Shown here: positions 3,585 through 22,149 of the stretch, piece after piece | Position numbering within the stretch: position 1 is the stretch's first letter | Layout of the letters: every line of letters begins with the position of its first letter | Origin: an uncultured Acidobacteriota bacterium | GTDB taxonomy: Bacteria; Acidobacteriota; UBA4820; DSQY01 | Direction: 5' to 3' | Assembly: GCA_963724125.1 (NCBI GenBank) | Contig: CAVRTJ010000034.1 | Coordinates: 18,237 to 82,236 of the forward strand | Length of the DNA: 64,000 bases | Notes under the pieces: generated by a model | What the model was told of the DNA's origin: nothing | Seen by the model: the letters and a program-made list of their open reading frames with translations, nothing else | Database searches by the model: none | Position numbers and translations under genes: made by a program

Positions 3585-3908
3585 CGTGCGGTGCTTCTTC
3601 GACGGCCCCCCGGCCTTTTCCAACTTTGGCCTTTACCCTTCCCCTCTTTGCCGCGCCGAGATCCGAAAGGGATTGGGGCCGCCCGCTTTCTTGCTTCTCG
3701 AAGACGACGGATGGGCACCGCCTCCCAAGCGGCGTCGCGCATTAGTTTCCTATAGCTCTTGCGTGTAGGGCGAGCCCCACACGTGTTCATCAGCAGTCTG
3801 TTATCCCCGTCCGTTGTCCCTTTTCTCTGGCGCTCGGGCCGCGACTTTTCGGTTGCCTCCATCGTGATCCGGCCTTAAATTGCAGACAAAGCAATGAGGA
3901 GGTTCGTC

Positions 3909-6900
3909 ATGAAACGGGACAGGGCATGTAAGAGGTGGACCTGTGTCTCCGTGATCCTCGTGGCACTGGGGCTGGGGCTCAGCCTCGGTACCCAGGCCCA
4001 GGATTACGGTACGCCCATGGCATGGGGGAACAACGGAGCAGGACAACTTGGCGACGGAACAACCGCCGGCAGTAACCTCGCCGTGCAGACATCGGGTCTC
4101 ACCCACGTTTCCGCGGTCACAGGAGGCGGCCACCACTCGTTGGCACTCCGGGCGGACGGCACCGTCTGGGCCTGGGGAATCAACAATCAGGGGCAACTCG
4201 GCAACGGGACGACGACGGGCTCTACGGTCCCCGTGCAGGTCCTCGGTCTTACAGACATCAAGGCCATCGCGGCAGGGTACAACCATTCTCTCGTCATAGG
4301 GGCCGACGGCACGATCTGGGCCTGGGGCTGTAACAGCAGCGGCCAGCTCGGCACAGGCGACGACACCCTCCGCCTTAGCCCGATTCAGGTTCCGGGCCTC
4401 ACCGAAGTTGTGGCTGTTGCGGCGGGCAAGGAGCACTCCCTCGCCGTCAGGGCGAACGGCACCGTCTGGGCCTGGGGAGCCAACGGTTCCGGGCAGCTCG
4501 GCGATGGGACGATAACCGAAAGGTACGCGCCCGTGCAGGTGACCGGGCTCTCGGAGATCACCGGCGTCGCTGCCGGCAAATACCACTCCCTCGCCGTCAT
4601 GGCCGACGGCACGATCTGGGCCTGGGGCTATAACGCGAGCGGCCAGCTGGGCAACGGCGGCAACATGGACAGCCACGTGCCGGTGCAGGTCTCCGGCCTG
4701 TCGGGCGTCGCGGCCGCAACGGCCGGCGATTCCCATTCCATGGCCCTATCAGGCGACGGTACCGTCTGGACTTGGGGGGCTAACGACAGGGGCCAGCTCG
4801 GCGACGGGACCATGGCCGACAGCAACCTGCCCATGCAGGTTACCGGCCTTACCGGGGTCACCGCCCTCGAGGGTGGTTACTGCCATTCCCTCGCCCTAAA
4901 GACCAACGGGCGGGTCATGGGCTGGGGCGGCAACGATATCGGGCAGCTCGGCGACGGGACGAATACCGACAGGCACGTGCCCGTACAGGTTTCCGGCCTC
5001 GAGGGCGTTACGGCCATCGCTGCGGGCTGGGAGCATTCGCTCTCGGTCAACAACGCGCCGCCGGCCTGGGCATGGGGTCGAAACGACTACGGCCAGCTCG
5101 GCGACTCGGACACGACAGATGCCAGCGTCGCCGTCCAGGTGTCCGGCCTCGTCCTTTCGACCGTAGCGGGGGGATACTTTCACGGTCTCGCACTGGAGCC
5201 CAACGGCATGGCGTGGGCCTGGGGACGAAACATCTACGGACAACTGGGAACCGGCGACTTCATCAATACTTCCTACCCCGTTCCGGTGACGAGCCTCACG
5301 GAAGCCCGGGCCCTGTCGTCGGGCGCGAACCACTCGCTGGCCATAGAGTACGACGGAACCCTCTGGGCGTGGGGGGCCAACGGCAGCGGCCAGCTCGGCG
5401 ACGGGACGCTCGCGGACCGCGCAGTGCCCATAAGGGTTCCTGGGCTGTCGGGCGTTAAGGCCGCCGGCGAAGGCTGGGCCAACACGCTGGCGCTTCTGAG
5501 CGACGGCACAGTGTGGGCGTGGGGAATGAACTCTTCCGGCGAACTCGGCGACGGAACAACCGTCGACAAGACCTCTCCCGTTCAGGTGCCGGGCTTGACC
5601 GGTATCAAGACCATGGGATCGGGCATGGGATTCGGCTTCGCCATCAGGGCCGACGGCACCCTCTGGACGTGGGGGGCTAACGACCACGGTCAGCTCGGCG
5701 ACGGGACGACCACCAACCGCACCTCTCCTATCCAGGTTCCGGGCCTCGTGAACGTTACGGCGGCAGCGGGCGGCCGGTACCATGCGCTGGCCTTGAAGAG
5801 CGACGGTACGGCTTGGACGTGGGGGTCGAACGAGTACGGCCAGCTCGGCCTGGGCGACACAATCGACCGCTCCGGCCCGGTTCAGATCTCGAGCCTCACG
5901 GGCATTGTAGCCATCGCGGCAGGCCGGTATCATTGCCTCGCCCTCCGGGCCGACGGGACGGTATGGGCCTGGGGATACAACTTCTACGGCGGTCTTGGAA
6001 TCGGGACGAGCGGGCCGAACGCGCACAGCTCTGTACCCATTCAGGTTCTCGACGTCGAAGACGCCACGGCCATTTCGGGAGGCGCGTTTCACTCCTTCGC
6101 CATCGCGCCCAGGCCGCCTTGCACGATCACATGTACAGCCACGGCATCGGCCTCCTCCGGCACGGCGCCGCTGAAGGTGTCCTTCACGGCGACGGCCACC
6201 CCGTCGAACTGCACGGGCGATCCGGCGTACGCCTGGGACTTCACGACCGACGGCGCGACCGACGACACCGCGCAGAATCCGGTCCACACCTACGACACAC
6301 CGGGGACCTTCACGTGGACCATGACTGTCACGGCATACGGCGCGATGTGCACCAAGATCGGTACGATCACCGTCACCACCGACGATACGCCCCCCGAAAC
6401 GTCGATGGCGTCGGGCCAGTGCGGGACGACCATCGACTCGACCTCTACGACTTTCTCCTGGGCAGGGACAGACAACGCCACGCCCGCTGGTAGCCTCGTC
6501 TACGCATACCGGCTGGACGGCGATTCATGGTCGGTGTTCGGCCCGGACACGGCCAAAACATACACCGGGCTTACCAACGGAACCCACAGTTTTAGCGTTA
6601 AGGCCAAGGACCTCGCGGGCAACGAAGACCCAAGCCCGGCGACGTGCGCCGTCGAGGTGAATCACGACCCGCCCGTCGTTTCGTTCATGCACAAGGTGGG
6701 CTCGCCCTTCCGGATCAAGGTTATGGGCAGCAACTTGCAGGACGGTATCCAGGTTTTCATCAACGGGGAATTCTGGGGTGATACCAGCAACCGATACCTC
6801 GTCAAGTGGAAGAACACCGGCAAGATCGTCGTGAAGAAGGGCTCGGCCCTAAAGGCTGCCGTGCCCAAGCACACCACGACGACCTTTCGCTTCGTGAACC

Positions 6901-6941
6901 CAGGCGGCGGCTGGGCCACTATGGACTTCACCTGGCCGTGA
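3909..6941 (+). CDS. Secreted RCC1-repeat (beta-propeller) protein with C-terminal PKD-like and Y_Y_Y-like beta-sandwich domains
   Basis: More than 12 tandem repeats of the RCC1 signature (WAWG.N..GQLGDGT ... HSLAL). N-terminal signal peptide MKRDRACKRWTCVSVILVALGLGLSLGTQAQ. SD GAGGAGG 6 nt upstream of the ATG at 3909; the ORF track start at 3894 is less likely. C-terminal region has a PKD-like segment (SFTATATPSN...YAWDF) and a YAYRLDGDSW...GTHSFSVKAKDLAGNEDPSPA motif. Confidence 0.85.
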   Translation: MKRDRACKRWTCVSVILVALGLGLSLGTQAQDYGTPMAWGNNGAGQLGDGTTAGSNLAVQTSGLTHVSAVTGGGHHSLALRADGTVWAWGINNQGQLGNGTTTGSTVPVQVLGLTDIKAIAAGYNHSLVIGADGTIWAWGCNSSGQLGTGDDTLRLSPIQVPGLTEVVAVAAGKEHSLAVRANGTVWAWGANGSGQLGDGTITERYAPVQVTGLSEITGVAAGKYHSLAVMADGTIWAWGYNASGQLGNGGNMDSHVPVQVSGLSGVAAATAGDSHSMALSGDGTVWTWGANDRGQLGDGTMADSNLPMQVTGLTGVTALEGGYCHSLALKTNGRVMGWGGNDIGQLGDGTNTDRHVPVQVSGLEGVTAIAAGWEHSLSVNNAPPAWAWGRNDYGQLGDSDTTDASVAVQVSGLVLSTVAGGYFHGLALEPNGMAWAWGRNIYGQLGTGDFINTSYPVPVTSLTEARALSSGANHSLAIEYDGTLWAWGANGSGQLGDGTLADRAVPIRVPGLSGVKAAGEGWANTLALLSDGTVWAWGMNSSGELGDGTTVDKTSPVQVPGLTGIKTMGSGMGFGFAIRADGTLWTWGANDHGQLGDGTTTNRTSPIQVPGLVNVTAAAGGRYHALALKSDGTAWTWGSNEYGQLGLGDTIDRSGPVQISSLTGIVAIAAGRYHCLALRADGTVWAWGYNFYGGLGIGTSGPNAHSSVPIQVLDVEDATAISGGAFHSFAIAPRPPCTITCTATASASSGTAPLKVSFTATATPSNCTGDPAYAWDFTTDGATDDTAQNPVHTYDTPGTFTWTMTVTAYGAMCTKIGTITVTTDDTPPETSMASGQCGTTIDSTSTTFSWAGTDNATPAGSLVYAYRLDGDSWSVFGPDTAKTYTGLTNGTHSFSVKAKDLAGNEDPSPATCAVEVNHDPPVVSFMHKVGSPFRIKVMGSNLQDGIQVFINGEFWGDTSNRYLVKWKNTGKIVVKKGSALKAAVPKHTTTTFRFVNPGGGWATMDFTWP

Positions 6942-7299
6942 TCGGTTACGGCAAACGGGGCCCTCTCGAGCCCTCCTGACTCTTCGCGACCGGGCGGGCA
7001 GGTTCCCGCCGGCCGAAAGCCCAAGTCGAGGACTCAGACCAGCAGGGTCCCGGCCGGCGCTGGGCGCGTGCTATGCAGCGAAGGATCACTGGTCCTGTGG
7101 GATCGGATACCCATGCGCCTTTCGGCACGGTGACCCAGCCAGCAAGCGATCGCGTCGGGAGCGGGCCTTTTAAGCACACCCGAAACCCTCAGCCCTCCCA
7201 ATGATTGCATCCTGGGGTGGCGGGGGGTTGACGATCTATGGTCCATGGACGGCCGTAGACGGCCCCGCGCGGGGGCGGCGGGGGCAGCCGGATGCCGCC

Positions 7300-8874
7300 C
7301 TAGGGCCGGCTCTCGTGCGGCCCGTGGCCCGACAGGCCGCGGTTCGCACCGCGGCGGAGGACGTTGTACACGAAGTGCCGCGCCCGGCTGGATGGCTGGT
7401 GCGCCGAACGCCTGGCGATGGAGCCGAGCCGGTAGAACTCTCTTCGCGCCCAGAGGAACCCCTCCCACAACTGCTCGGGCGTCATGTGCGCCGGCCGGAT
7501 GACCACCCTGTCCTGCGTGTACCGGTCCCAGTCGCGGGTGAGGATCCGGCCTTCGCCGGCCAGGCGCTCGTGCAGGCGGGTGCCGGGGTAAGGCGTGAGG
7601 AGCTGGAAGGTGCCGGTGCTCAGGTTGACGGACTGGGCCCACGCGACGGTTTTCTCGAAAACGTCGGGCGTGTCCTCGTCCAGGCCGAAGATGAAAGAGC
7701 CCTCCACGGCGATCCCGTGGTCCTGCAGGCGGCGCACGCCATCCTCGGGCGGGCCCGCCGCGCCGAGCTTGCGGAAACGCTCCGGCCCGCTCCTGCCGAT
7801 CGTCTCCAGGCCCAACAGCAGGCCCATGCAGCCGCTCTTCCGCGCAAGGTCCATCAGCCCGGCGTCTTTGGCGATGCTGAGGGAGGCCTGGGAAACCCAC
7901 CGCTTCCCCATGGGCGCCAGGCCCGCCAGCAGCTCGGCGCAGTAGGCCGGGCTCGCGTTGATGTTGTCGTCGAGAAAGAGCACGAACCGCCCGGGCAGCG
8001 CCTCGACCTGCTCGAGCACGTCGCGCAGCGGCCGGTGCCGGAACCGCCGCCCGAACACTGGCACGACGGAGCAGAAGTCGCAGTCCCAGGGACAGCCCCG
8101 CGCCGTCTGCACGAGGTTCCGCGTGAGGTACCGGATGCCGTTCCCGGCGTCCGTCCGGGGCGGCGGCACGCCGTCGAGCGGGAAGTTCTCTGGGGCCGCG
8201 TACCTGGGCTGGAGGGCCTTCTTCTCGAAGTCGGCCAGGAGCCGGGGCAGGACCGGTTCGGCCTCCCCCACCACCACGGCGTCGGCGTGGGCGGCGGCCT
8301 CGTCCGGCAGCGTGGACGGGTGGATGCCGCCCAGCACCACGGGGACGCCGGCCGCCCGGGCGCGATCCGCGAGCGCGTAGGCGCACCCCGCCTGGGCGGT
8401 CATGGCCGTGATGCCCACTAGGTCGGCCTCGAAGGGTCCGGGGAAGACGCCCTGCGCGTTCTCGTCCCACAGAACCACGTCCCAGTGGGCGGGGGCCAGC
8501 GCGGCCACCTGGAAGAGGCTGACCGGCGGCAACTGGAAGAACCGGATCCAGTTGGACGTGTTTTTCCACGGGTTGATCAGCAACAGCTTCGGCATTCGCG
8601 CCCTCCGTTCCGTCTTCACGGCCCGTCTGTCCCTCCGATCCCTTCGTTCTTCCCGTTTCTGTATCATGTCCTTGATATCGTGCAACTCCTTCGACAAATC
8701 CCTGGCGGCCACGCTGTTCTTGTAGGCCATCACGATCAGTTTTACCGACACGAGAAGGACACCGGCCTCCAACAGCAGATCGTGCGTCAGGCCCTTGGCG
8801 AACAGCGCCAACCCGAATAGGCCGAAGGTGACGACGATGATCACGAGCGACCCGGCGTCGAAGTGCTCACGCAT
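7300..8874 (-). CDS. B12-binding radical SAM protein with an N-terminal ~90-aa two-helix membrane extension
   Basis: From MPKLLLINPW the sequence has the cobalamin-binding-domain pattern followed by the radical SAM cysteine motif CPWDCDFC (CxxxCxxC). In-frame upstream extension MREHFDAGSLVIIVVTFGLFGLALF...LLVSVKLIVMAY has two hydrophobic helices and an Arg-rich linker. SD AGGAG precedes the ATG at 8874; a second strong SD GGAGGG lies 6 nt before the internal ATG at 8595, which is an alternative start. Confidence 0.8.
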   Translation of the reverse strand: MREHFDAGSLVIIVVTFGLFGLALFAKGLTHDLLLEAGVLLVSVKLIVMAYKNSVAARDLSKELHDIKDMIQKREERRDRRDRRAVKTERRARMPKLLLINPWKNTSNWIRFFQLPPVSLFQVAALAPAHWDVVLWDENAQGVFPGPFEADLVGITAMTAQAGCAYALADRARAAGVPVVLGGIHPSTLPDEAAAHADAVVVGEAEPVLPRLLADFEKKALQPRYAAPENFPLDGVPPPRTDAGNGIRYLTRNLVQTARGCPWDCDFCSVVPVFGRRFRHRPLRDVLEQVEALPGRFVLFLDDNINASPAYCAELLAGLAPMGKRWVSQASLSIAKDAGLMDLARKSGCMGLLLGLETIGRSGPERFRKLGAAGPPEDGVRRLQDHGIAVEGSFIFGLDEDTPDVFEKTVAWAQSVNLSTGTFQLLTPYPGTRLHERLAGEGRILTRDWDRYTQDRVVIRPAHMTPEQLWEGFLWARREFYRLGSIARRSAHQPSSRARHFVYNVLRRGANRGLSGHGPHESRP

Positions 8875-9010
8875 TCCCGCTCCTGTCCGCGCCGTGCGCC
8901 GGCCGGAGCATGAGGCAGGCGACGTCAGCAAGAAGCGCCGCGACGCCCGCCACCACGAGGGATGCGCCCGTCTCCCCGAACGCAGGCCCGGTCAGAATGT
9001 TTGAACCCAT
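8867..9010 (-). CDS. Hypothetical 47-aa small protein with one hydrophobic helix, translationally coupled to the radical SAM gene
   Basis: ATG at 9010 preceded by GGAGG at 5-nt spacing. Product MGSNILTGPAFGETGASLVVAGVAALLADVACLMLRPAHGADRSGNA. Its stop TGA overlaps the ATG of the downstream radical SAM gene (ATGCGTGA). No family recognised; could be a spurious ORF. Confidence 0.3.
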   Translation of the reverse strand: MGSNILTGPAFGETGASLVVAGVAALLADVACLMLRPAHGADRSGNA

Positions 9011-9261
9011 TCGTGCCTCCATTCGGCTGTCGCGGGCACACCCGGCGCCCTCTCGGCGTTCGAGGCGTCCCCGAATCGACCGTTGGCAAGCCTGATCATT
9101 TGTCACCTGTGTTCAGTATACCGTATTTCGCCGCGGACCCGGCCATGTCCCCGGGCCTGAAATAGCCTGGGCGGTTCACGGGTTTCCTAAGACGACGCAT
9201 GTGGACGAAGGCGTGGTCCGGGAATGGGCGCGCCTCTTGACCCGTATAGGAAGGAGACCTA

Positions 9262-9894
9262 GTGAGACATTCGACACTCAGGCACATCGTACTGGCAATC
9301 GGCATAACGGCCATGGTCGGCGCGGCGGCGCTCGCCGCCGAACCAGCCACGCAGAACTACAAGATAGACCCCGCCAATTCGTCGGTCGGCTTCAGCATCC
9401 GCCACCTCGTTTCCAGGGTGCAGGGCCAGTTCGACGCCTTCTCGGGTGAAGTGCGCGTCGACGCCGCGGACTCCGCCGCCTCGTCCGTCTCGTTCACCAT
9501 CCAGACGGCCTCCATCGACACGCACGTCGCCATGCGCGACAAGGACCTGCGGTCGGCCAACTTCTTCGACGCCGCGAAGTTCCCCACGATCACGTTTAAG
9601 AGCACGAAGATGGTCGAAAAGGGGAAGGACCGCTACGACGTCTACGGCACGCTGACCATGCACGGCGTCGCAAAGGACGTTGTTCTGCCCGTCGTCTACA
9701 CCGGCAGGATCAAGGACCCGTGGGGCAACGAGCGGTTGGGCTTCACCATCGAGACGACGCTCGACCGCAAGGACTACGGGATCGTCTGGAACAAGGTGCT
9801 CGACGACGGGAGCGTCTTACTGGGCAACGACGTGGCCGTTACCATCCACATCGAGGCGGTCAGGCCGCTGCACCCCCGCAAGAAGTCAAAGTAG
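9262..9894 (+). CDS. yceI: YceI-like periplasmic polyisoprenoid-binding protein
   Basis: Signal peptide followed by the YceI-family pattern (YKIDPANSSVGFSIRHLVSRVQGQF...TITFKST...YDVYGTLTMHGV). GTG start at 9262 with SD AAGGAGA. Divergent from the radical SAM gene. Confidence 0.85.
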   Translation: MRHSTLRHIVLAIGITAMVGAAALAAEPATQNYKIDPANSSVGFSIRHLVSRVQGQFDAFSGEVRVDAADSAASSVSFTIQTASIDTHVAMRDKDLRSANFFDAAKFPTITFKSTKMVEKGKDRYDVYGTLTMHGVAKDVVLPVVYTGRIKDPWGNERLGFTIETTLDRKDYGIVWNKVLDDGSVLLGNDVAVTIHIEAVRPLHPRKKSK

Positions 9895-9904
9895 GCAACT
9901 CGTT

Positions 9905-12359
9905 TCAGCGTTCGGCAGGGATCGCCGCGAGAGCGCTTTCGGAGAATCCCATCCGTTCGCCGAGTTCTCTGAAGCGGGCCGTCCATGTTGCGGCCTCGCG
10001 GTCCTCCTGGCCTGCACGGCGCGCGTGCGCGGACAGCTCCAGGCGTTTCATCGCGTCGTAGTCGTTCTGCACGGTCCAGAGCTTGACGGGGAAGGGCAGG
10101 CCTTCCACGACCTGCATGAGATTGAACATGCGCTCCATGTGCCCGGCGTCGTCGGGCTTCGCTCGCAGCTTCGCCATGGACGATTCCAGAGTCCCGCGCA
10201 GGGCGAATTCGAGCAGCTCGGTTTCGAGCCCGACCTTCAGTTCGTCGACCTGGCGCATGATGGCCTCGACGCGGCCGGGGGACGGGTCCTCCGACAGGAA
10301 TTCCCGCCTCAGGTCGAGGTTGATGATGTACTCCGCGGCGTTCTGGAAAGACCGCGGCAGGGACACGCCGATGTGCGGGAGAAACCGCATCATGGCGGCG
10401 TGCTCCTCGTAGATGCGCCTGTAGGAATTCTCGATCTCCTGGAGCGTGGGCTCCATGATCCTGTGAACGATCTGGCGCTGTTCGCGCCTGAAGAGGTCCT
10501 TCAGGGAGTAGATCGATTTTCCGAAGTGCTTGTCGAGAAGGCGTATGACGTCGGCGAAGTCGCTGATGTGGAACGCCTCCCCCACTTCCCTGCGCAACTC
10601 TTTGAACTCCTGTTCCGAAATGAACGGCCGCACGCCGCAGTAGAGCACCTGGTCGCCGAGGTGGAGGGCGCCAAAGCTGATCAGGCTCGTCTCGCCCGTG
10701 ATGCGCGAGGTCAGCCGCACGCGGCCGACGGCCATGGATGTCTTTCCCGTCTGCGCCGTCTCGAAAGTGTCGAGATCGGCGTCGAAGCAATAGATCTGCG
10801 CCTTCCTGTCGTAGGCCTGGAAGAGCGAGCTGACGGCGTAGTGCGCGCCGACCCGCACGAGGTCGAGGGCGGCCGGACGGACGAAGCGCTCGTAGAGGCG
10901 CCGGCCGTCGCCGTATTCGGGCAGGTTGGACGCGGCCCCTTCGAGCCTCTGCAGGAAGCCGGGCTCCAGGTTCTTTTCGAAAAGCTCGCCGACGAGCTGG
11001 ATGACCCTGCCGGCGTACTGCAGGATCTGCACCGTGCTGATGTCCGACACGTCGTCGAAGAACCACCCACAGCTCGTGAACATGAGCATGGCGTGGCGCT
11101 GCATCTCCAGGAGCTTGAGAACGTGGACGCTCCGCCTCCCGCCCGTCTTTAGGTGCTTCTTGCAGAACGCGTCGACCGCCACGGCATTCCGGTTGAGGAT
11201 GACCGAGATGTAGTCGTCGCGCGCCCGCCACGGGTCCTCGAACAGCTCGGCCCCCTCCTTCTCGTAGAGCGCCGCCGCCTCGTCGCGAAGCCAGTCCAGC
11301 GCTGCCCTGAGCGGGGCGCGCCAGGCCTGATTCCACCCGCCGTGCCAGCCCGTGCTGCAGCCGCAGTCGGCCCGCCAGCGCTCGACCCCGTGGACGCAGC
11401 TCCAGGAGCTGCTCTCGACGATTTGGACCTCGTATTCGGGCGGGTGCTTCTCCAGGTACTCGCCGTAGTTGGTGAGGCGGGCGATCTTCTTTTCCTCGAT
11501 GTAGCGGAGCGCGTACGCGAGCGCCATGTCCCCGAACCGGTGGTGGTGCCCGTAGGTCTCTCCGTCCGTGGCGACGTGAACGAGCTGTGGCCAGTGCCTG
11601 TCGTTCGAGAAGGCTCCGGCCAGGCGGACCGCAAAGGCCTCGCCCGAGTCGAGGAGATTGTCGAAGGCCACGGACCTGGCGACGGGCCCGTCGTAAAAGA
11701 AGAGGTCGATGGCCGCTCCCGACGGCAGCGGGCACCTGTAGGCCCTCGCCGGATCGATGTGCGTGCCGTTGACCGCCTGCCAGGCGCTCTCGCCGGTCCG
11801 CCTCACGGCCGCGGCCTGGTGGGGAGCGAGAACCGTAAAGGCTATTCCGTGCCGGACGAGGGTTTCGAGGGTTTCGGTGTCCACGGCCGTCTCCGCCAGC
11901 CACATGCCTTCGGGCTTCCGGCCGAAGCGGTGCTCGAAGTCCCGGATTCCCCACAGAACCTGCGTCTCCTTGTCCCGCGCATTGGCCAGGGGCATGATGA
12001 CGTGGTTGTAGACCTGCGCGAGGGCCGAGCCGTGGCCCGAGAAGCGTAGCCTGCTCTCGCGATCGCCCGACGAGGACGCCTTCGTACGTATCCCGGGCAT
12101 GTTCTTCCAGCCAGCTGAGCAGGGTCGGGCCGAAGTTGAAGCTCATCTGCGCGTAGTTGTTCGATATGCCGGCGATGTGCCCCTTCTCGTCGAGGATGCG
12201 CGACGTCGCGTTGGGCTGGTAGCATTCGGCGGTGATCCGCTCGTTCCAGTCGTGGTACGGCTGGGCGGACTGCTGGTACTCGACCCGCTCCAGCCACGGG
12301 TTCTCCCGCGGGGGTTGGTAGAAGTGTCCGTGAATGCAGATGTAGCGTTCGTCGCTCAT
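9905..12359 (-). CDS. Glycoside hydrolase family 57 protein (~818 aa) with C-terminal extension; apparent frameshift near 12060-12075
   Basis: N-terminus MSDERYICIHGHFYQPPRENPW and NYAQMSFNFGPTLLSWLEEHA are GH57 signatures in the frame starting at 12359. After about 12070 the sense continues in the frame of ORF 9905-12100 (DRESRLRFSGHGSALAQVYNHVIMPLANARDKETQVLWG...). The ATG overlaps the glgB stop (ATGA). Confidence 0.8.
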
Positions 12360-14290
12360 GACCCGTGCTCAGGCCTGAGGAAGACGGCCGCCAGGGGCGG
12401 GAGCGTGAGCTGAAGGGTGAAGGGCCGCCCGTGCCGGGACTCGGACGTGGCGGTCACGGCACCCAGGTTGCCCATGCCGCTCCCTCCGTATTCGGGCGCA
12501 TCGCCGTTGAACACTTCGAGCCATCGCCCGTCCAGGTCCACGCCCACCTTGTAGGCGAGCCGCGGGACGGGCGTGAAGTTGCAGGCCACCACCATCCGGT
12601 CCTCCCGCTTCTCGCCCCTTCTCTCGAAGACGAGAATGCTGTTCTCGGAGTCGTTGCAGTCGATCCACTCGAAGCCGCCCTCCCCGCAGTCGCGCTCGTG
12701 CAGGGCCGGCTCGTTCCGGTAAAGCCAGTTGAGCCGCTGGACCGCGAGCCTGACGCCGCGGTGCATGGGGCTGTCGAGCAGGTGCCAGTCCAGGCTCCGC
12801 TCGTGCGACCATTCCTGCCGCTGGCCGAACTCGCACCCCATGAAGAGGAGCTTCTTGCCCGTCTGCGCGTACATGTACGCCAGGAGCAGCCGGAGGTTCG
12901 CGAACCGCTGCCACTCGTCGCCGGGCATCTTGTTCAAGAGGGAGCCCTTTCCGTAGACCACCTCGTCGTGCGACAGGGACAGCACGAAATTCTCGAACCC
13001 CGCGTACATGGTGCGAAAGGTCAGCTGGTTGTGATGGAACCGTCGGTGCACGGGGTCGTGCCTGAAGTATTCGAGCGTGTCGTGCATCCAGCCCATGTCC
13101 CACTTGAGGCCGAAGCCGAGGCCGCCCACGTAGATCGGCCGGGAGACCATCGGCCAGGACGTGGACTCCTCGGCGATCGTCTGCACGTCGGGGTAGGCCT
13201 GGTACACTTCGGCGTTCAGGCGCCGCACGAAGTCGACGGCTTCGAGGTTCTCCCGGCCGCCGAACCGGTTCGGAATCCACTGGCCGTCCTCCCGGGCGTA
13301 GTCCAGGTAGAGCATGGACGCCACGCCGTCCACCCGCAGGCCGTCGGCGTGGTAGGCGTCCAGCCAGAAGAGGGCGCCGCTGACGAGGAAGCTCCTGACC
13401 TCGTCGCGCCCGTAGTTGAAAATCGCGCTCTTCCACTCAGGATGGAGGCCCTGCCGGGGGTCCGCGTGCTCGTAGAGGTGCGTTCCGTCGAAGTAGGCCA
13501 GGCCGTGCTCGTCCGTGGGGAAGTGGGACGGGACCCAGTCCAGGATTACCCCGATCCCGTTCTGGTGCAGGACGTCGATCATGGCCATGAAGTCGGCGGG
13601 GCTGCCGTACCGGCTGGTCGGCGCGAAGAAGCCCGTGCACTGGTAGCCCCACGATCCGTAGAAGGGATGTTCCATGACCGGCAGAAACTCGACGTGGGTG
13701 AATCCCATCTCCTTCACGTAGGCGGCCAGCCGCGGGCCTAGTTCCCTGTAGCTGAGCATGCGGTTGCCGTCTTCCGGCACGCGCATCCAGGACCCCATGT
13801 GGACCTCGTAGATGGACATCGGCGAGTCGAGGCCCTGCTTCCGCCCCCTTTCCGACATCCAGGCACCGTCCTTCCACGCGTGGGCCAGCTTCCGGATCAT
13901 TGATGCCGTCTTGGGCGGAAGTTCGGCCGAGAACGCGAACGGATCGGCCTTCTCCACGGTGTATCCGTTAGTGCTGGACGCGATCCTGTACTTGTAGCGG
14001 TGCCCGTCGAGCGCGCCCGGAACGAAGCCCGCCCATATGCCCGAACTGCCACGCGCATCCAGCGGGTCGGCCGTCCGATTCCACCCGTTGAAGTCCCCGA
14101 CCACGTGGACGGATCGTGCGTTGGGCGCCCACACCGCGAAGTGCGTCCCCGCCACGCCGTCCCTGGCGCAGCAATGCGCCCCGAGCTTCCGGTAGAGGCG
14201 GAAATGGGACCCCTCGTTGAACAGAAAGAGGTCCTCCCCGGTCAGTTCGAATTCGGAGGCGTCGGGCGTGCGCTCAGTTCCTGCTTCCAA
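12356..14290 (-). CDS. glgB: 1,4-alpha-glucan branching enzyme (GH13)
   Basis: Conserved GlgB sequence from LFLFNEGSHFRLYRKLGAH through the GH13 catalytic region (GIGVILDWVPSHF, GLRVDGVASMLYLDY, EESTSWP, FVLSLSHDEVVYGK). The first ~90 codons of the long ORF (to 14566) look like non-coding GC-rich translation, so the start is placed at a TTG near 14290 and is uncertain. Confidence 0.85.
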   Translation of the reverse strand: MEAGTERTPDASEFELTGEDLFLFNEGSHFRLYRKLGAHCCARDGVAGTHFAVWAPNARSVHVVGDFNGWNRTADPLDARGSSGIWAGFVPGALDGHRYKYRIASSTNGYTVEKADPFAFSAELPPKTASMIRKLAHAWKDGAWMSERGRKQGLDSPMSIYEVHMGSWMRVPEDGNRMLSYRELGPRLAAYVKEMGFTHVEFLPVMEHPFYGSWGYQCTGFFAPTSRYGSPADFMAMIDVLHQNGIGVILDWVPSHFPTDEHGLAYFDGTHLYEHADPRQGLHPEWKSAIFNYGRDEVRSFLVSGALFWLDAYHADGLRVDGVASMLYLDYAREDGQWIPNRFGGRENLEAVDFVRRLNAEVYQAYPDVQTIAEESTSWPMVSRPIYVGGLGFGLKWDMGWMHDTLEYFRHDPVHRRFHHNQLTFRTMYAGFENFVLSLSHDEVVYGKGSLLNKMPGDEWQRFANLRLLLAYMYAQTGKKLLFMGCEFGQRQEWSHERSLDWHLLDSPMHRGVRLAVQRLNWLYRNEPALHERDCGEGGFEWIDCNDSENSILVFERRGEKREDRMVVACNFTPVPRLAYKVGVDLDGRWLEVFNGDAPEYGGSGMGNLGAVTATSESRHGRPFTLQLTLPPLAAVFLRPEHGS

Positions 14291-16462
14291 TGAGAAGGTC
14301 CTTTCTGCGAGGTCTCGACCGCCGCGACGGGCGGCTCGGCATCGCGCGCCTCGCCGCCCGTCCGGCCCGTCAAGTGGTGCAGGGCGCGCTGCACGGCCGC
14401 GTTGGCGCCGGCCTCCCGGAGCCCCATGTGGAGCTTGCGCCGCCAGCTCGGCCTCGCCTCGCCCACGCCCGGCCAGTTCTGCTGCCTCGTCTCCCCCCAG
14501 AGATCCTCGAGCGACGCTACGAGGTAACCCGCCCTGCTCGTGCGCAGGTCGTCGAAAAGCCTGCACAGCACCTCGTGCACCTCCTGGCCCGGGTCGCCCC
14601 CCGTCCCGATGTCCAGGCGTTCCCTTACGTTGTCCCTCATGGCCTTGCGTCCGGCCGTTCCGGCCTCGTAGTCCCCGTCCCCCAGCAGGCCGAGTTCCTG
14701 CCGTTCCGCAAGGTCAAGTCCCCGCCAGAAGGCGGCGAACGAGGGGAGGTCGTGCGTGCCGAGTTCGGCCAGGCTCCCCTGCGGAACCGATTCGGACGGG
14801 CGCCCGGTCGAGGAACCGGCCTCGAACTGCATGACCCACATCCGGCTCACGCCGTTGCTGTCCATGGCCCTCCGGACCGCGCGGGGAACCGTGCCGAGGT
14901 CCTCGCCCACCAGCGCGGTGCGGTGCCGGTGCGACTCGAGGCGGAGGACGGCGTACAGGGCGTCCGCCGGGTAGCCGACGTAGGCCCCCTCCGTGGGCTT
15001 GAGCCCGGAGGGCACCCAGAAGAGCCGGTGCAAACCCATGATGTGGTCGATCCTCAGGACGTCGGCGTACGCCATCGAGCTCGAGAGCGTGGCCCTGAAA
15101 TGCTCGAGGCCGTCCGCCAGCATGCCTTCGGGCGACATGGGCGGGAAACCCCAGTCCTGTCCGGCGGCGAAGAAATCGTCGGGCGGCGCGCCGACCGAGA
15201 CACCCTGGACGTAAAGGTCGGGGCGGCGCCACGTGTCGAAGCCGTCCGGGTGGACCCCCAGCGGGTGGTCCAGGTTGAGGCGCACGTTCAGCTCTTCCGC
15301 CTTGCGCCGGACGTGCGCCAGCTGTTCGTGGGCGACGAATTGCGCGTACAGATGGTAGCGTGCGGCCTCCGGGTCATAGTCCGCCGGTGTCACCTCGCCG
15401 CCCCTCAGCGGAGCAGGCCATTGACGCCACCCCGCGCCCTGCCGCTCCGTCACGGCGCGGAATTCGGCGTACGCCTCCAGGTCCGGCGTGGCCCGCAGGA
15501 AGGTCTCCATGGCGTTCCTGCGGGCCTCCGGCCCGAGGTCGATTTCGCGGGCGAGCCTCTCCAGAACTTCTCGCTTGACGGCCATCGCGGTCCGGTAGTC
15601 CACGAACTCCTCGCCGGCGAGCCTCTTCAGCGCCTCCCGCGTCTCCTCTCCGTCGAGAAAGGACCGTGCGTCCGTCGACCGGTCGAACTCGGGCAGGGCC
15701 TCCACGGCCACGTAGAACTCGTTCAGGAACCGCTGGCTGACCGGCGAGTAGGGACTCGGCGAGTCGTTTTCCGCCAGGAACGCGGCGTGGAGGGGCAGGG
15801 TCGAGGCAATCCGGCCCCCGTTGTAGGCGACGAACTTCACAAACGCCTCGAACGAGCCGAAATCTCCCGAGGGAAAGGCGCCGGATCCACTGAGCCCGTA
15901 AAGGGGCGCGAACAACCCGACCTGGGGCCCGTCGCCCCCCGCGGGGTGGACGAAGGCCTTCTCGGGGGCGCCTATCAGCCTGCTTCGTCCCGTGCGCCCG
16001 GCCGCCTCGAGTTCGATGGTGTGATAGCCGGGCGGAACGTCCCCGGGAAGCGCCACCCGGACGCGGTGGAACGCGTCTTTTCCAAGACTTTCGGTTTCGC
16101 ACGGGCGAGGCGTCGGACGTTTCGATCCAGCCCTTCCTGCCTTCGCCGGATTCCATGGCCAGTTCGTATCGAATCCGCCTGCCGGCGAGCTTCTCCGGCA
16201 CAATGAGCCGAAGAAAGGCCCGCCTGCCGGGGGTGACCACGGCGACCGGGTCGATGAGGCGGCTCAGGGCGTCCGCCCTTCGTTCGCGCAGGCGTTTCTC
16301 GGCGCCTGACAGGCCGCCCGTCAGCGCCCCAAGGCTTTCGAGGATGGCCAGGACCGCGTCCGGCGAAGCCGTGTGCATCTTTCCGTCGAGGCCCTTGTAG
16401 CGCACCTGAACGCCGCAGGCCGCGGCCACCTTTTCGAGCACCTTCGGGAAGGGCTTCTTCAT
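14242..16462 (-). CDS. malQ: 4-alpha-glucanotransferase (amylomaltase, GH77); apparent frameshift near 16085-16095
   Basis: N-terminal segment (MKKPFPKVLEKVAAACGVQVRYKGLDG...) is in the frame starting at 16462; from about 16090 (a tttt/aaaa run) the GH77 core continues in the frame of ORF 14242-16203 (LPLHAAF..., DHIMGLHRLFWVP, GEDLGTVP). Start overlaps the treS stop (ATGA). Confidence 0.8.
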
Positions 16463-19400
16463 GGTTCCGTTTCCACGAGCCAGAGGATGCCGGTCAGCGG
16501 GATGTCCACCCAGGCCGGCCTGTTGTTGAGCTCATAGCCGAGTTCGTACACGGCCTTGTCGAGGAGATAGGCGCCCAGGAGCAGACCGGCGGTCGCTTCG
16601 CTGACCGCCAGCACGGGCGATTCGCCCGCCGTCTCCATGTAGCTCCGGAGGAATTCGCCGCTCACCGTGGTGTACCAGAAGTCCGCCCATGCTTTCGCGG
16701 GTTCCTCCTGGCCCCTCTTGATCATGCCGATCTCCACCTGGTGCTTGAAGGCCTGGTAGGCCGCGTAGTGAAAAGAGCGCAGCATGCCGGCCACGTCTCG
16801 GAAAGGCGACCTCTTGAGCTGGCGTTCCGCCAGGCTCCTCGCGGGCTCCCCCTCGAAGTCTATGACCGCGAAATCTTTGCCGGTATTGAGAACCTGCCCG
16901 AGATGAAAATCCCCGTGGCAGCGGATCCTGTTGGCGTCCAGCTTCCTGCCTAGGAGGCGCTTGAAGCGCTCGTTCACGGCCTTGTCGTTCGCCAGGACGC
17001 GCCGGACTAAATCGGCCTTCGATTGCGGCACCGCGCCCCTCCTTTCGGAGAGCAGGTCCAGCGTCTGGCGCGCCAGGTTGCGCATGGACTGGTAGAGCGA
17101 CCGCTGGTAGAGGGTGGTGAAGAGTTCGGGCGAAAACCGCGGGTCTTCGCTCCTGGACGCCAGCGCAATGTGCATCTCCGCCGTCCGGATGCCGAGCAGG
17201 CGGGCCGATTCCACGTAGGCGCCGACCAGGTCCACGCCTTCCTGGTTGATCTCTCCCGCGCTCCTCTCGAGGAGCGGCCTCCTGTCGAGGTACTCTTCCG
17301 GGGGTCCCGACGCAAAGGTAGCGTGCGTAAGGATTCTATCGAAGAAATGGGACAGCACGTTGAGCGTGTACGTCCACGCGTCCCCGTGGTTCTCGACGTA
17401 CCTGTGGAGAACGCCAAGGGTCATGGGCGCCTGCTTGCGCACCTCGTAACTGATGTGCCCGGCCAGCTGCGGCGCGTGGGGAAAGCCGGCGCTCTCCGTC
17501 AGGAACCGGCCGATTTCCAGCTCGGGGTTCTCCCCTCTCTCGAGCTTCCGGTAGAGCTTGAGAACGAAGGCCTCGTCGTAGATGATGGACGTGTTGCTCT
17601 GCTCGGCCCCCACGACCTCGGCCTGGAGATCTTCGGCCGCCTTTCGGACGCCTCCGTTGATCTTTGCGTTCCTGTGTGTCGCCAGCACGCCGTGCCCGGC
17701 TTCGACCTGCCGCCTCCGTGCGAACAGGTCGAGCAGGCGCCTGGGCAGCATCTGGCTGTACACGGCGTCGTAAAGCAGCCCTCTTCCGCCCCTCCCGGAC
17801 AGATCCAGCCAGCATATCGCCGCCGCGGGGTGCGCCTCGAGCAGGGCCTGGCCTTCCTGGCCCTGCATGAAGGCGACGGGGAGCAGGTACGTTTCGGCAT
17901 CGCCTTCCTGGTAGGCCACATCCAGGAGCACGAGCGCCGCCCTGTCGCCCCTGGCGCGCCCCTGCATCCAGATCACGTCCAGGACTTCGACGCCGGAGAT
18001 GGTGCGGGACTTGCCTCCGAACCACCGGCTGCCCAGCAGGTAGCGGGGCAGCGCTCTTTCCAGCCTGCGAACGTTCCTACCCTTCAAGATGGAATCCCAC
18101 CCGTTCCTGGGAACGGAGAGCACGGGAAGTTCCCCTTCCGCCTGCCTGTGGGCGATGGCGTCCTCGTGGACCGGCGCCTCGAGCTCGAACCAGTAGAACC
18201 CGTAAGGGTTGAGCGCGAGGCAGTACGGGCAGTCGCGCACTTTTCCGAAACGCGTTCTACCAAAAAGCTCGACCGGCGTGTACCCCTCGAAGCCCTCGAG
18301 TTCTATCTCAGCCTGCTGCGCGTGTCTCGACAGGTTGGCCACCACGAGGATAACCCCGCCCTCGTGGCGCCGCAGGTACGCCAGGACCTTGTTGTTCTGC
18401 GGATAGACGAACTCGAACGACCCCCAGCCGAAGGCGCGGTGCTGGTTTCTCATGGCGATCAGTCTTTTCATCAGCCACCACAGGGAGTTCGGGTTGCCCT
18501 GCTGGGTCTCCACGTTGACCGCCGCGTAGTGGTAGCTCTGGTCGAGGATGAGCGGAAGGTAGAGCCGCTGGGGATTGGTGTTCGAGAAGCCCCCATTCCT
18601 GTCGGAACTCCACTGCATGGGCGTGCGCACGCCGTCTCGATCGCCGAGGAAGATATTGTCGCCCATGCCTATCTCGTCGCCGTAATAGAGAACCGGCGTC
18701 CCCGGAAGCGACAGCAGCAGGGCGTTGAGCAGTTCGATTTTCCGGCGGTCGTTCCCGAGGAGCGGCGCGAGCCTGCGCCGTATGCCGATGTTGATCCGGG
18801 CCTGCGGGTCCGCCGCATAGGCCCTGTACATGTGGCTGCGCTCCTCGTCCGTGACCATTTCGAGCGTCAGCTCGTCGTGGTTCCGCAGGAAGATCGCCCA
18901 CTGGCACGACTCGGGAATCCGGGGCGTCTGCTGGAGTATGTCGACCAGGGGGAACCGGTCTTCCGCGCTCAGGGACATGAATAGCCTCGGCATGAGCGGG
19001 AAGTGGAAGTTCATGTGGCATTCGTCCCCCTCGCCGAAGTACGCCGCCGCATCCTCCGACCACTGGTTGGCCTCGGCGAGAAGCATCTTGTCCTTGAACC
19101 GGGCGTCGACGTGCGCCCTCAACTCCTTGAGGAAGACGTGCGTTTCAGGCAGATTCTCGCAGTTGGTCCCCTCGCGCTCGAAGAGGTAGGGCACGGCGTC
19201 GAGGCGCATGCCGTCCACGCCCATGCCGAACCAGAAATCGACGACCTTCAGAATCGCCCGGCGGACGTCCGGGTTGTCGAAATTGAGGTCGGGCTGATGG
19301 CTGTAGAACCTGTGCCAGTAGTAGGCCTTTGCCACGGGATCCCAGGCCCAGTTCGAGTTCTCGAAATCCGGAAAGATGATGCGGGTTCCCGCGTACCGAT

Positions 19401-19854
19401 CCCGCGTTTCGCTCCACACGTAGAACCTGCGCGCCCGGCTGCCGGCGGGTGCCCTGCGCGCCCGCTGAAACCACGGGTGCTGGTCGGAGGTGTGGTTGAT
19501 GACCATTTCGGTGATCACCTTCAACCCCCGATTGTGCGCTTCATTGAGGAAGCGCTTGAAGTCCTTCACCGTCCCGTAGTCCGGGTTGACGCTGCAGTAA
19601 TCGGCGATGTCGTACCCGCCGTCCCTCAGCGGCGACGGGTAAAACGGCAGGAGCCACAGCGCCGTGACACCCAGGTCGCTCAGGTAATCGAGTTTCTCCG
19701 TCAGGCCGGCGAAATCTCCCGACCCGTCGCCATCCGAGTCCTTGAAGGCGCGGACGTGAAGCTCGTAGATGACGGCGTCCTTGTACCACCGGGGGTGTCC
19801 TTCCTGTCCCTGTGCACGCGATGTCTTCGGCTTCGTCATGGGTTCTTTCCGCAT
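16459..19854 (-). CDS. treS: Trehalose synthase (GH13) fused to maltokinase (TreS-Mak/Pep2 fusion), ~1130 aa
   Basis: TreS N-terminus WYKDAVIYELHVRAFKDSDGDGSGDFAGL, GH13 motifs (GVDGMRLDAVPYL, FLRNHDELTLEMV) and a C-terminal kinase-like half (CHGDFHLGQVLNTGKDFAVIDFEGEP). The 310 codons upstream of the chosen ATG within ORF 16459-20784 are glgE coding sequence read in another frame. The start overlaps the glgE stop. Confidence 0.85.
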   Translation of the reverse strand: MRKEPMTKPKTSRAQGQEGHPRWYKDAVIYELHVRAFKDSDGDGSGDFAGLTEKLDYLSDLGVTALWLLPFYPSPLRDGGYDIADYCSVNPDYGTVKDFKRFLNEAHNRGLKVITEMVINHTSDQHPWFQRARRAPAGSRARRFYVWSETRDRYAGTRIIFPDFENSNWAWDPVAKAYYWHRFYSHQPDLNFDNPDVRRAILKVVDFWFGMGVDGMRLDAVPYLFEREGTNCENLPETHVFLKELRAHVDARFKDKMLLAEANQWSEDAAAYFGEGDECHMNFHFPLMPRLFMSLSAEDRFPLVDILQQTPRIPESCQWAIFLRNHDELTLEMVTDEERSHMYRAYAADPQARINIGIRRRLAPLLGNDRRKIELLNALLLSLPGTPVLYYGDEIGMGDNIFLGDRDGVRTPMQWSSDRNGGFSNTNPQRLYLPLILDQSYHYAAVNVETQQGNPNSLWWLMKRLIAMRNQHRAFGWGSFEFVYPQNNKVLAYLRRHEGGVILVVANLSRHAQQAEIELEGFEGYTPVELFGRTRFGKVRDCPYCLALNPYGFYWFELEAPVHEDAIAHRQAEGELPVLSVPRNGWDSILKGRNVRRLERALPRYLLGSRWFGGKSRTISGVEVLDVIWMQGRARGDRAALVLLDVAYQEGDAETYLLPVAFMQGQEGQALLEAHPAAAICWLDLSGRGGRGLLYDAVYSQMLPRRLLDLFARRRQVEAGHGVLATHRNAKINGGVRKAAEDLQAEVVGAEQSNTSIIYDEAFVLKLYRKLERGENPELEIGRFLTESAGFPHAPQLAGHISYEVRKQAPMTLGVLHRYVENHGDAWTYTLNVLSHFFDRILTHATFASGPPEEYLDRRPLLERSAGEINQEGVDLVGAYVESARLLGIRTAEMHIALASRSEDPRFSPELFTTLYQRSLYQSMRNLARQTLDLLSERRGAVPQSKADLVRRVLANDKAVNERFKRLLGRKLDANRIRCHGDFHLGQVLNTGKDFAVIDFEGEPARSLAERQLKRSPFRDVAGMLRSFHYAAYQAFKHQVEIGMIKRGQEEPAKAWADFWYTTVSGEFLRSYMETAGESPVLAVSEATAGLLLGAYLLDKAVYELGYELNNRPAWVDIPLTGILWLVETEP

Positions 19855-21821: not shown

Positions 21822-22149
21822 AGCGTCTTCCATTGCCGGTTTCTCCGATGAGGTGTTCCCGGCCGGTCTTTTCCGGCCATCCGGCCGCCCGCCGCCCTCC
21901 GACCAGTGAAAACGCCGCCGCATGGGGGGAATTCCGCCGTTGCGGCCTCCGGGGAGCCGCGGCTCTCAACCTTGCCCCTCCGAACCTTCCGCCAGACGGG
22001 TGTTAGGGCTTGTCTACCGTTGGAGTCTAACCGCGCGCTTCTTTTCCTGTCAATCGCGAGCCGCGGAATCCAGGGCCGCTCCGTTCGTGGACTGCGCCCG
22101 GACGCGCCCCGTTCGGCCGCAGCCGGAGCCCAGGGGCTTCCGCAACGGC

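Follow-up and report, generated by a model that had tools for sequence, protein, structure and literature searches.

The gene unit described here lies on the minus strand of a 64,000-nucleotide stretch of DNA from an uncultured Acidobacteriota bacterium (GenBank assembly GCA_963724125.1, contig CAVRTJ010000034.1, positions 18,237–82,236; the whole stretch is called the window and positions refer to it) and includes a long frame, open from 8874 to a stop at 7300, that encodes 524 residues of an apparently membrane-anchored B12-binding radical S-adenosylmethionine (radical SAM or rSAM) enzyme. With good confidence, we read this frame as two genes run together: a separate small membrane-protein gene, open reading frame 2 (ORF2), which has lost its stop only here, and an ordinary soluble enzyme. 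The proposed unit would have three cistrons: ORF1, a poorly conserved hydrophobic leader ORF of 47 codons that would be coupled to ORF2 by an overlap of 8 nucleotides (nt); ORF2, an apparently intact member of an unannotated family of proteins of about 76 residues with two transmembrane (TM) helices; and a soluble class B enzyme that would start at the ATG at 8595, with about eight extra bases around the ORF2 stop joining ORF2 in frame to the enzyme in the window only. The comparisons given below show outright where the genes begin and end, to which families they belong and how far the adjacencies extend. The finding is mostly ordinary, the enzyme being uncharacterised and of a known class, and it removes a false lead: there is no membrane-anchored B12 radical SAM family here, only a single-sequence fusion with an adjoining gene, and automatic annotation of the 524-residue protein would mislead.

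ORF2 begins at the ATG at 8874–8872, and residues 1–80 of the long frame (8635–8874) are homologous to a family of stand-alone two-helix membrane proteins. All the sequence features listed in an earlier note on this DNA were confirmed; the N-terminal two-helix stretch of about 90 residues that it had described is borne out by AlphaFold and by hydropathy (Kyte–Doolittle windows of at least 1.6 at residues 4–30 and 32–51 of residues 1–93). The fusion junction (8596–8634) contains, as the note had also observed, the sequence GGAGGG (8606–8601), a Shine–Dalgarno (SD) sequence of the enzyme placed 5 nt ahead of the internal ATG at 8595. The ancestral TGA of ORF2 is still present at 8618–8616, out of frame, and ORF2 reads into the enzyme ATG. 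In five related loci (L001, L006, L009, L093 and L094) the TGA that ends the 84-residue ORF2 is retained. The ORF2 product of L006 ends in RREDP, with the stop 16 nt before the enzyme ATG; in L001, L009, L093 and L094, with enzymes 96–97% identical, the stop lies about 60 nt before it. Outside the junction, L006 and the window show one difference in about 1,300 positions (99.9% identity); at the junction the window has 8 extra nt and two substitutions within about 25 nt, the extra nt being approximately GACA at 8631–8628 and AGAC at 8615–8612. The apparent membrane extension of 93 residues arises because these roughly eight bases shift the ORF2 TGA out of frame. Among the window and the five relatives the in-frame fusion is seen in the window only, and it reflects either a mutation that arose very recently at the strain level or a mistake in assembly. 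One alternative that the earlier note had entertained, loss of the stop of a distinct small membrane protein, is thus upheld by the TGA kept in the five relatives, by a stand-alone family of 74–79 residues and by the 120 best enzyme homologues, which start at the internal ATG.

The enzyme gene proper (7300–8595, minus strand) encodes 431 residues from the ATG at 8595. The 524-residue protein used as a query returned thousands of homologues, the rSAM relatives numbering roughly 5,500, and the N-terminal extension is carried by none of the 120 best, which are mostly 419–488 residues long and match only downstream of the internal ATG (67–85% query coverage); the closest relatives start MPKLLLINPW or MPSLLLINPW. 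Two homologues of double length, P0012 (886 residues) and P0016 (835 residues), are possibly tandem fusions of two B12-rSAM units. The earlier assignment of B12-binding and radical SAM domains, and of a YceI-like divergent neighbour, agrees with Pfam matches above the cutoffs: the B12-binding domain PF02310 (8239–8529, residues 116–212 of the 524-residue reading) scores 49.4 bits against a cutoff of 32.1, and the radical SAM core PF04055 (7639–8109, with the CxxxCxxC motif CPWDCDFC at 8094–8071) scores 39.3 bits against 29.5. A B12-binding domain followed by a CxxxCxxC radical SAM core is the layout of class B enzymes such as HpnP/HpnR, BchE and QCMT/MgmA. The earlier note had proposed a subfamily classification with hidden Markov models (HMMs), and no curated NCBIfam subfamily accepts the enzyme, which falls far below every cutoff: BchE (TIGR02026), 92.1 bits versus 481.35; HpnJ, 70.1 versus 577.6; HpnR, 54.6 versus 650; the ladderane-type lipid B12/rSAM model TIGR04072, 53.2 versus 360; ApyD (NF050148), 55.6 versus 750; and TIGR03975, a model for ribosomally synthesized and post-translationally modified peptides (RiPPs), 15.7 versus 281.85. 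DUF4070, reported in HpnP (PMC10697835), is found on several homologues with 46–48% identity to the enzyme, and no hopanoid genes were seen near the enzyme in the window. The nearest solved structures by sequence are QCMT (PDB entry 9CCB) and AprD4 (6FD2), although the match to QCMT is limited to 40 residues around the cluster motif. The enzyme is accordingly classified, from its sequence, as a soluble class B, cobalamin-type radical SAM protein of 431 residues outside the characterised subfamilies; radical chemistry that depends on cobalamin would be expected of it, in most cases the methylation of an unactivated carbon. Since its GGAGGG and ATG are intact, the soluble 431-residue form can still be made and, despite the fusion, probably is.

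The contexts of homologues offer some clues to the substrate. Outside the Thermoanaerobaculia clade the enzyme has its closest homologue in P0005 (55% identity), which shares a lipid-type cluster with two further B12-rSAM genes, ketoacyl synthases, a gene of acyl carrier protein (ACP) size, LolA and an LpxL-like acyltransferase. A metagenomic cluster of this type in L089 (1–15275; also in L090–L092) holds three B12-binding rSAM genes and a zinc-ribbon radical SAM gene together with LolA, an LpxL-like acyltransferase, an ATP-grasp protein, an alpha/beta hydrolase, a polysaccharide deacetylase, a 73-residue ACP-sized gene, two ketoacyl synthases and a methyltransferase. The window, in contrast, lacks the ketoacyl synthase, ACP-sized, LolA and acyltransferase genes, and the enzyme is surrounded there by the small ORFs, by genes for YceI and an RCC1/PKD protein and by an alpha-glucan cluster. 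A homologue with 51% identity (L095) sits among ClpB-like and lipoate-ligase genes, and the wider rSAM family shows no common context over 88 loci, its surroundings being heterogeneous (an AMP-binding ligase-like gene at 13 loci, a small methyltransferase at 12 and a membrane protein at eight). A lipid-like substrate may be the best guess because P0005 sits in a cluster of ketoacyl synthase, ACP, LolA and acyltransferase genes; it is a weak favourite because the 51% homologue and more distant ones have other contexts.

When the 93-residue extension was used as a query, 716 relatives were found, mostly 74–79 residues long, with 55–74% identity and without Pfam annotation. An alignment of 27 family members has 20 invariant columns, which include D6, S9, G28, T30-H31-D32, E36, G38, L41-V42-S43 and K45-L46-I47; the polar T30-H31-D32, E36 and K45 lie in or beside the second helix. 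ORF2 of the window has all of the family-invariant residues and is 57–88% identical to the 26 other members. Its best match, with 89% identity and the same gene order as in the window, is L009, from a Thermoanaerobaculia metagenome-assembled genome (MAG), which places the window in this class of the Acidobacteriota. Relative to L009 there are four, five and 18 differences at codon positions 1, 2 and 3, respectively, with 18 synonymous and nine non-synonymous codon changes. Judged from the 716 relatives and from this third-position bias, ORF2 is certainly a real coding sequence. The AlphaFold model is a hairpin of a helix (residues 7–27) and a long helix (residues 31–80), with a mean pLDDT of 80. 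The C-terminal tail contains 16 Lys/Arg residues (net charge +7), which predicts a cytoplasmic C-terminus, so that the enzyme, even when fused, would face the cytoplasm. Family members occur in at least 330 species in a scan of species-representative genomes and in more than ten phyla; the carrier groups include Acidobacteriota, Desulfobacterota, Nitrospirota, Campylobacterota, Chlorobiota, Bacteroidota, Planctomycetota, Calditrichota and Beta- and Gammaproteobacteria. The family (about 76 residues with two TM helices, the C-terminal helix being basic and predicted to face the cytoplasm) is unannotated, strongly conserved and widespread. It is the one part of the locus that has wider interest, with 55–74% identity maintained across more than ten phyla and charged residues (T-H-D, E36 and K45) in the second helix, and it is testable, since cultured organisms carry it, among them Chlorobaculum thiosulfatiphilum DSM 249 (L081) and strains of Geobacteraceae and Desulfosudis.

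No model for the ORF2 family exists in Pfam or NCBIfam; a Foldseek comparison of the ORF2 model with the PDB gave no match at E ≤ 0.001, and a PHROGs search with ORF2 gave nothing meaningful. The family does resemble the S-4TM proteins (PF18159; PADLOC PDLC00723) of the cyclic oligonucleotide-based antiphage signalling system (CBASS): ORF2 aligns over its whole length with helices 3–4 of the four-TM profile (Pfam positions ∼162–232 of 291; PADLOC positions 176–243 of 302), PDLC00723 is matched by 18 of the 27 members (best E value 8.6e-6) and PF18159 by 11 of the 27 at E ≤ 1 (best 4.4e-4). However, every ORF2 score is under the Pfam gathering cutoff (best 20.1 versus 26.9 bits), ORF2 has half the size of S-4TM and it lacks a conserved neighbour in 80 loci, hence the partner gene that a CBASS effector needs, although no search with a cyclase-specific profile was made. 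The candidate role of CBASS effector was rejected on these sub-threshold scores and on the finding that no neighbour family occurs in more than seven of the 80 loci, a count made with no specific cyclase profile. The resemblance is a lead and not a classification, and it may reflect membrane-helix composition alone.

The surroundings of ORF2 were compared at 80 ORF2-centred loci, in which the enzyme and YceI were sought within 6 kb. ORF2 has no conserved neighbours, the largest neighbour cluster being present at seven of the 80 loci; this commonest neighbour is a lipocalin-like gene (motif GKWYEIA; median distance ∼350 nt) found at L031, L036, L057, L077 and three further ORF2-centred loci. 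YceI in the window has a lipocalin-like fold too, which may be a coincidence. The enzyme or an orthologous YceI gene occurs near ORF2 at a single locus, the close relative L009; L043 has a YceI-like match of 27% identity ∼3 kb from ORF2. Conversely, L009, L093 and L094 are the only rSAM-centred loci with ORF2, and the Acidobacteriota MAG JBJKRE encodes the enzyme (L004, 76% identical) on one contig and an ORF2 homologue (L012) on another. Enzyme orthologues with 76–77% identity (L003, L004 and L005) have no ORF1, ORF2 or YceI and have a PKD-domain gene upstream instead. In L002, with an enzyme 84% identical, a DJ-1/PfpI gene and a 57-residue two-helix ORF precede the enzyme, and YceI lies further upstream; the DJ-1/PfpI stop overlaps the start of the 57-residue ORF (ATGA; L002 1572–2392), and no DJ-1/PfpI remnant was found in the window. 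From this distribution we infer that ORF2 acts alone in the membrane and is a chance neighbour of the enzyme, not a dedicated partner.

The divergent YceI-like gene (9262–9894, plus strand) encodes 210 residues with a hydrophobic N-terminus and matches PF04264 over its full length (168 bits); it differs from the E. coli type in scoring below the NCBIfam equivalog cutoff (151.6 versus 232). Its adjacency to the enzyme is confined to relatives at least 84% identical (L002, L006, L009, L093 and L094), and no orthologous YceI gene is present at L003/L004, at other rSAM-centred loci or at 79 of the 80 ORF2-centred loci. The proposal in the earlier note that membrane anchoring and the YceI neighbour together point to a lipid or isoprenoid substrate loses both its supports, anchoring not being a family trait and the adjacency, whose conservation across related genomes had been suggested as a check, not being held beyond close relatives.

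ORF1 (8867–9010, minus strand) has its ATG at 9010–9008, its TGA at 8869–8867 and one hydrophobic segment; its 47 codons and the GGAGG SD (9016–9020, with a 5-nt spacer) are as previously described. The earlier statement that its TGA overlaps the next ATG needs a minor correction: ORF1 and ORF2 share 8 nt (ATGCGTGA); this is not a 4-nt ATGA overlap, and no base belongs to both the stop and the start codon. GGAGG, the frame and the ATGCGTGA overlap are kept in L006, L009, L093 and L094, and GGAGG itself does not vary among the window, L009 and L002. The frame survives indels of 21 and 9 nt, and the window, L009 and the 57-residue ORF of L002 have in common the core D(V/I)xC(L/I)xLxPA, in which the Cys is invariant, with V/I, L/I and M/V changes. 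Relative to L009, the DNA identity of ORF1 is 82.1% and that of the non-coding flank is 81.8%; differences are spread over the codon positions (seven, eight and seven), with 14 non-synonymous versus four synonymous codon changes. A third-position excess is present in ORF2, the enzyme and YceI, but not in ORF1. A word-index protein search found no ORF1 homologues, and the single match among 1.84 billion proteins in a full HMMER search, a 703-residue protein aligned in six stretches, was read as low complexity; at the other 79 ORF2 loci the upstream ORFs are unrelated to ORF1. A relationship of ORF1 to the ORF2 family was considered and rejected (profile scores of −0.8 and −0.9 bits, within those of shuffled sequences). 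The 57-residue ORF of L002 is 56% identical to ORF1 over 27 residues and scores 11.6 bits against the ORF2 profile, a value reached by none of 300 shuffles, and it retains G28, D32 and the A-G-V landmarks; it may, speculatively, be a decayed ORF2 relative, with ORF1 derived from the same stock. At best, ORF1 would be a fast-evolving, lineage-restricted leader peptide, and its coding status is ambiguous.

Some observations weigh against separate genes that are adjacent by chance. The order ORF1–ORF2–rSAM is held in all relatives that are at least 94% identical, and the 57-residue ORF of L002 weakly resembles both ORF1 and the ORF2 profile; a functional link of ORF1, ORF2 and the enzyme within the close clade is possible on these grounds. 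In addition, the three junction forms among close strains (a 16-nt spacer, a ∼60-nt spacer and fused) could reflect selection and not drift or error. A bolder form of this argument holds that the fusion is real and adaptive, with ORF2 a membrane-docking partner and the fused protein a 'Rosetta stone' for an enzyme that works at the membrane on a hydrophobic substrate; we think this unlikely. It draws on six independent sequences in which ORF2 immediately precedes the enzyme gene (the window, L001, L006, L009, L093 and L094), on the shortness of the 16-nt spacer in L006, on a compatible topology with a predicted cytoplasmic ORF2 tail, on P0005 in its lipid-type cluster and on the possible decayed ORF2-like ORF ahead of the enzyme in L002. 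All six sequences are, however, close relatives, and descent alone explains their common order; the rSAM gene is missing from 79 of the 80 ORF2 loci, ORF2 is absent from rSAM-centred loci other than L009, L093 and L094 and from the loci of orthologues at 76–77% identity, and no fused protein appeared among the 120 best homologues in a collection of 5.8 billion protein clusters. Little credence is given to the more elaborate proposal that ORF2 stands for a new, very widespread and highly conserved class of mini membrane proteins related, at half the size, to the pore-forming effector hairpin of S-4TM and recruited in Thermoanaerobaculia as the membrane dock of the enzyme, with the fusion a genuine Rosetta-stone event and the enzyme working on a membrane lipid. 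That the fusion is instead a sequencing or assembly artefact, with ORF2 and the rSAM gene separate in the organism as they are in the relative of 99.9% identity, is a substantial possibility, although we stop short of calling it probable. All eight gap columns and two further mismatches between the window and L006 fall in the ∼25-nt junction, with only one difference in the ∼1,300 positions elsewhere, and a 1-nt insertion in a G-run at ∼12066 splits a GH57/DUF3536 gene that is intact (817 residues) in L009, so indel errors or pseudogenes do occur in the window sequence. Yet the junction change consists of two 4-nt insertions and of substitutions and so differs from a homopolymer slip, and the window junction piece GGGCCGTGAAGAC, missing from L006, resembles the L009 spacer GGGCCGCGAAGAC; this likeness is consistent with a labile purine-rich spacer in which real deletions occurred independently. 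Real or not, the fusion does not make membrane anchoring a feature of the enzyme family.

The alternatives for ORF1 and YceI can be weighed in the same way. The earlier note had offered ORF1 as a substrate or partner peptide, and in its most specific form this would make ORF1 a RiPP-like precursor modified by the rSAM enzyme. A small ORF with a conserved SD upstream of a class B rSAM gene, a core with an invariant Cys and conservative changes, and 21- and 9-nt indels that keep the frame are what such a precursor might show. The idea fails on conservation, the check that the note itself had named: ORF1 is missing from the 76–77% orthologous loci L003, L004 and L005, has no homologues in two large protein collections and shows no purifying selection, its 82% identity to L009 being equal to that of the non-coding flank, with the even 7/8/7 distribution and the 14 to 4 ratio of codon changes given above. 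Moreover, no peptidase, transporter or recognition domain lies nearby in the window, the ApyD and TIGR03975 scores (56 versus 750 and 16 versus 282 bits) are far too low, and the overlap couples ORF1 to ORF2, not to the enzyme. We regard a RiPP role as highly improbable. It is much more conceivable, if not favoured, that ORF1 is not a gene at all: a GC-rich 5′ leader would happen to be open in this frame or, at most, be translated into an unimportant peptide. ORF1 diverges at the intergenic rate without third-position bias, is not called by any gene caller in L006, has no homologues and is unrelated to the ORFs upstream of other ORF2 genes. On the other hand, close relatives have kept the SD, the reading frame and the ATGCGTGA overlap, the two indels have lengths divisible by three, similarity to the 57-residue ORF of L002 is seen at the protein level even though the enzyme there is only 84% identical, and neither a stable RNA structure nor an Rfam family explains the conservation. 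The last possibility, that the enzyme belongs with YceI and the small membrane proteins to a single system for modifying or handling a membrane isoprenoid or lipid, seems improbable. YceI-like proteins bind polyisoprenoids, the divergent arrangement is kept in L002, L006, L009, L093 and L094, and the gene most often found beside ORF2, at only seven of 80 loci, is lipocalin-like; against this, the YceI adjacency is gone beyond close relatives, a DJ-1/PfpI gene lies between YceI and the small ORF in L002, and the enzyme scores below the hopanoid and ladderane-type lipid rSAM models.

Signals in the RNA and promoter regions are sparse. A possible −10 box for ORF1, TATACT (9115–9120, minus strand; TATAAT in L009), may lie in the 251-nt divergent intergenic region between YceI and ORF1, and a consensus promoter scan found no full sigma-70 site. 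A terminator scan gave a single terminator-like match, on the wrong strand and inside ORF2. A structured leader RNA was considered and rejected, the fold z-score of −1.45 not being significant. Rfam gave nothing at gathering thresholds over the whole window, and a permissive Rfam search of 8500–9350 gave only a sub-threshold Moco-like match on the other strand; this match to the Moco/tungsten riboswitch model (9137–9272, plus strand) is just upstream of the YceI start and is probably due to chance (17.9 bits versus a gathering threshold of 36; E = 0.2).

Elsewhere in the window, an alpha-glucan cluster of the GlgE-pathway type (9905–21923, minus strand) appears to be unrelated to the rSAM unit and contains GH57/DUF3536, a GlgB-like branching enzyme, MalQ 4-alpha-glucanotransferase, a TreS–maltokinase-like fusion (1441 residues) and GlgE. 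The GH57/DUF3536 gene is split into two frames (ORFs 9774–12359 and 9905–12100, minus strand) and is a pseudogene or reflects a sequence error; the split affects the trust that can be placed in small indels of the window. On the other side of the enzyme, a segment of ∼3.7 kb (3586–7274) holds the gene of a 1015-residue RCC1-repeat/PKD protein (3894–6941). This segment is missing from L001, L009, L093 and L094, in which the rSAM stop joins directly to ∼3585, and it is either an insertion in the window or a deletion in those four loci; the C-terminal domain of the RCC1/PKD protein resembles the end of the PKD protein upstream of the rSAM gene in L003/L004.

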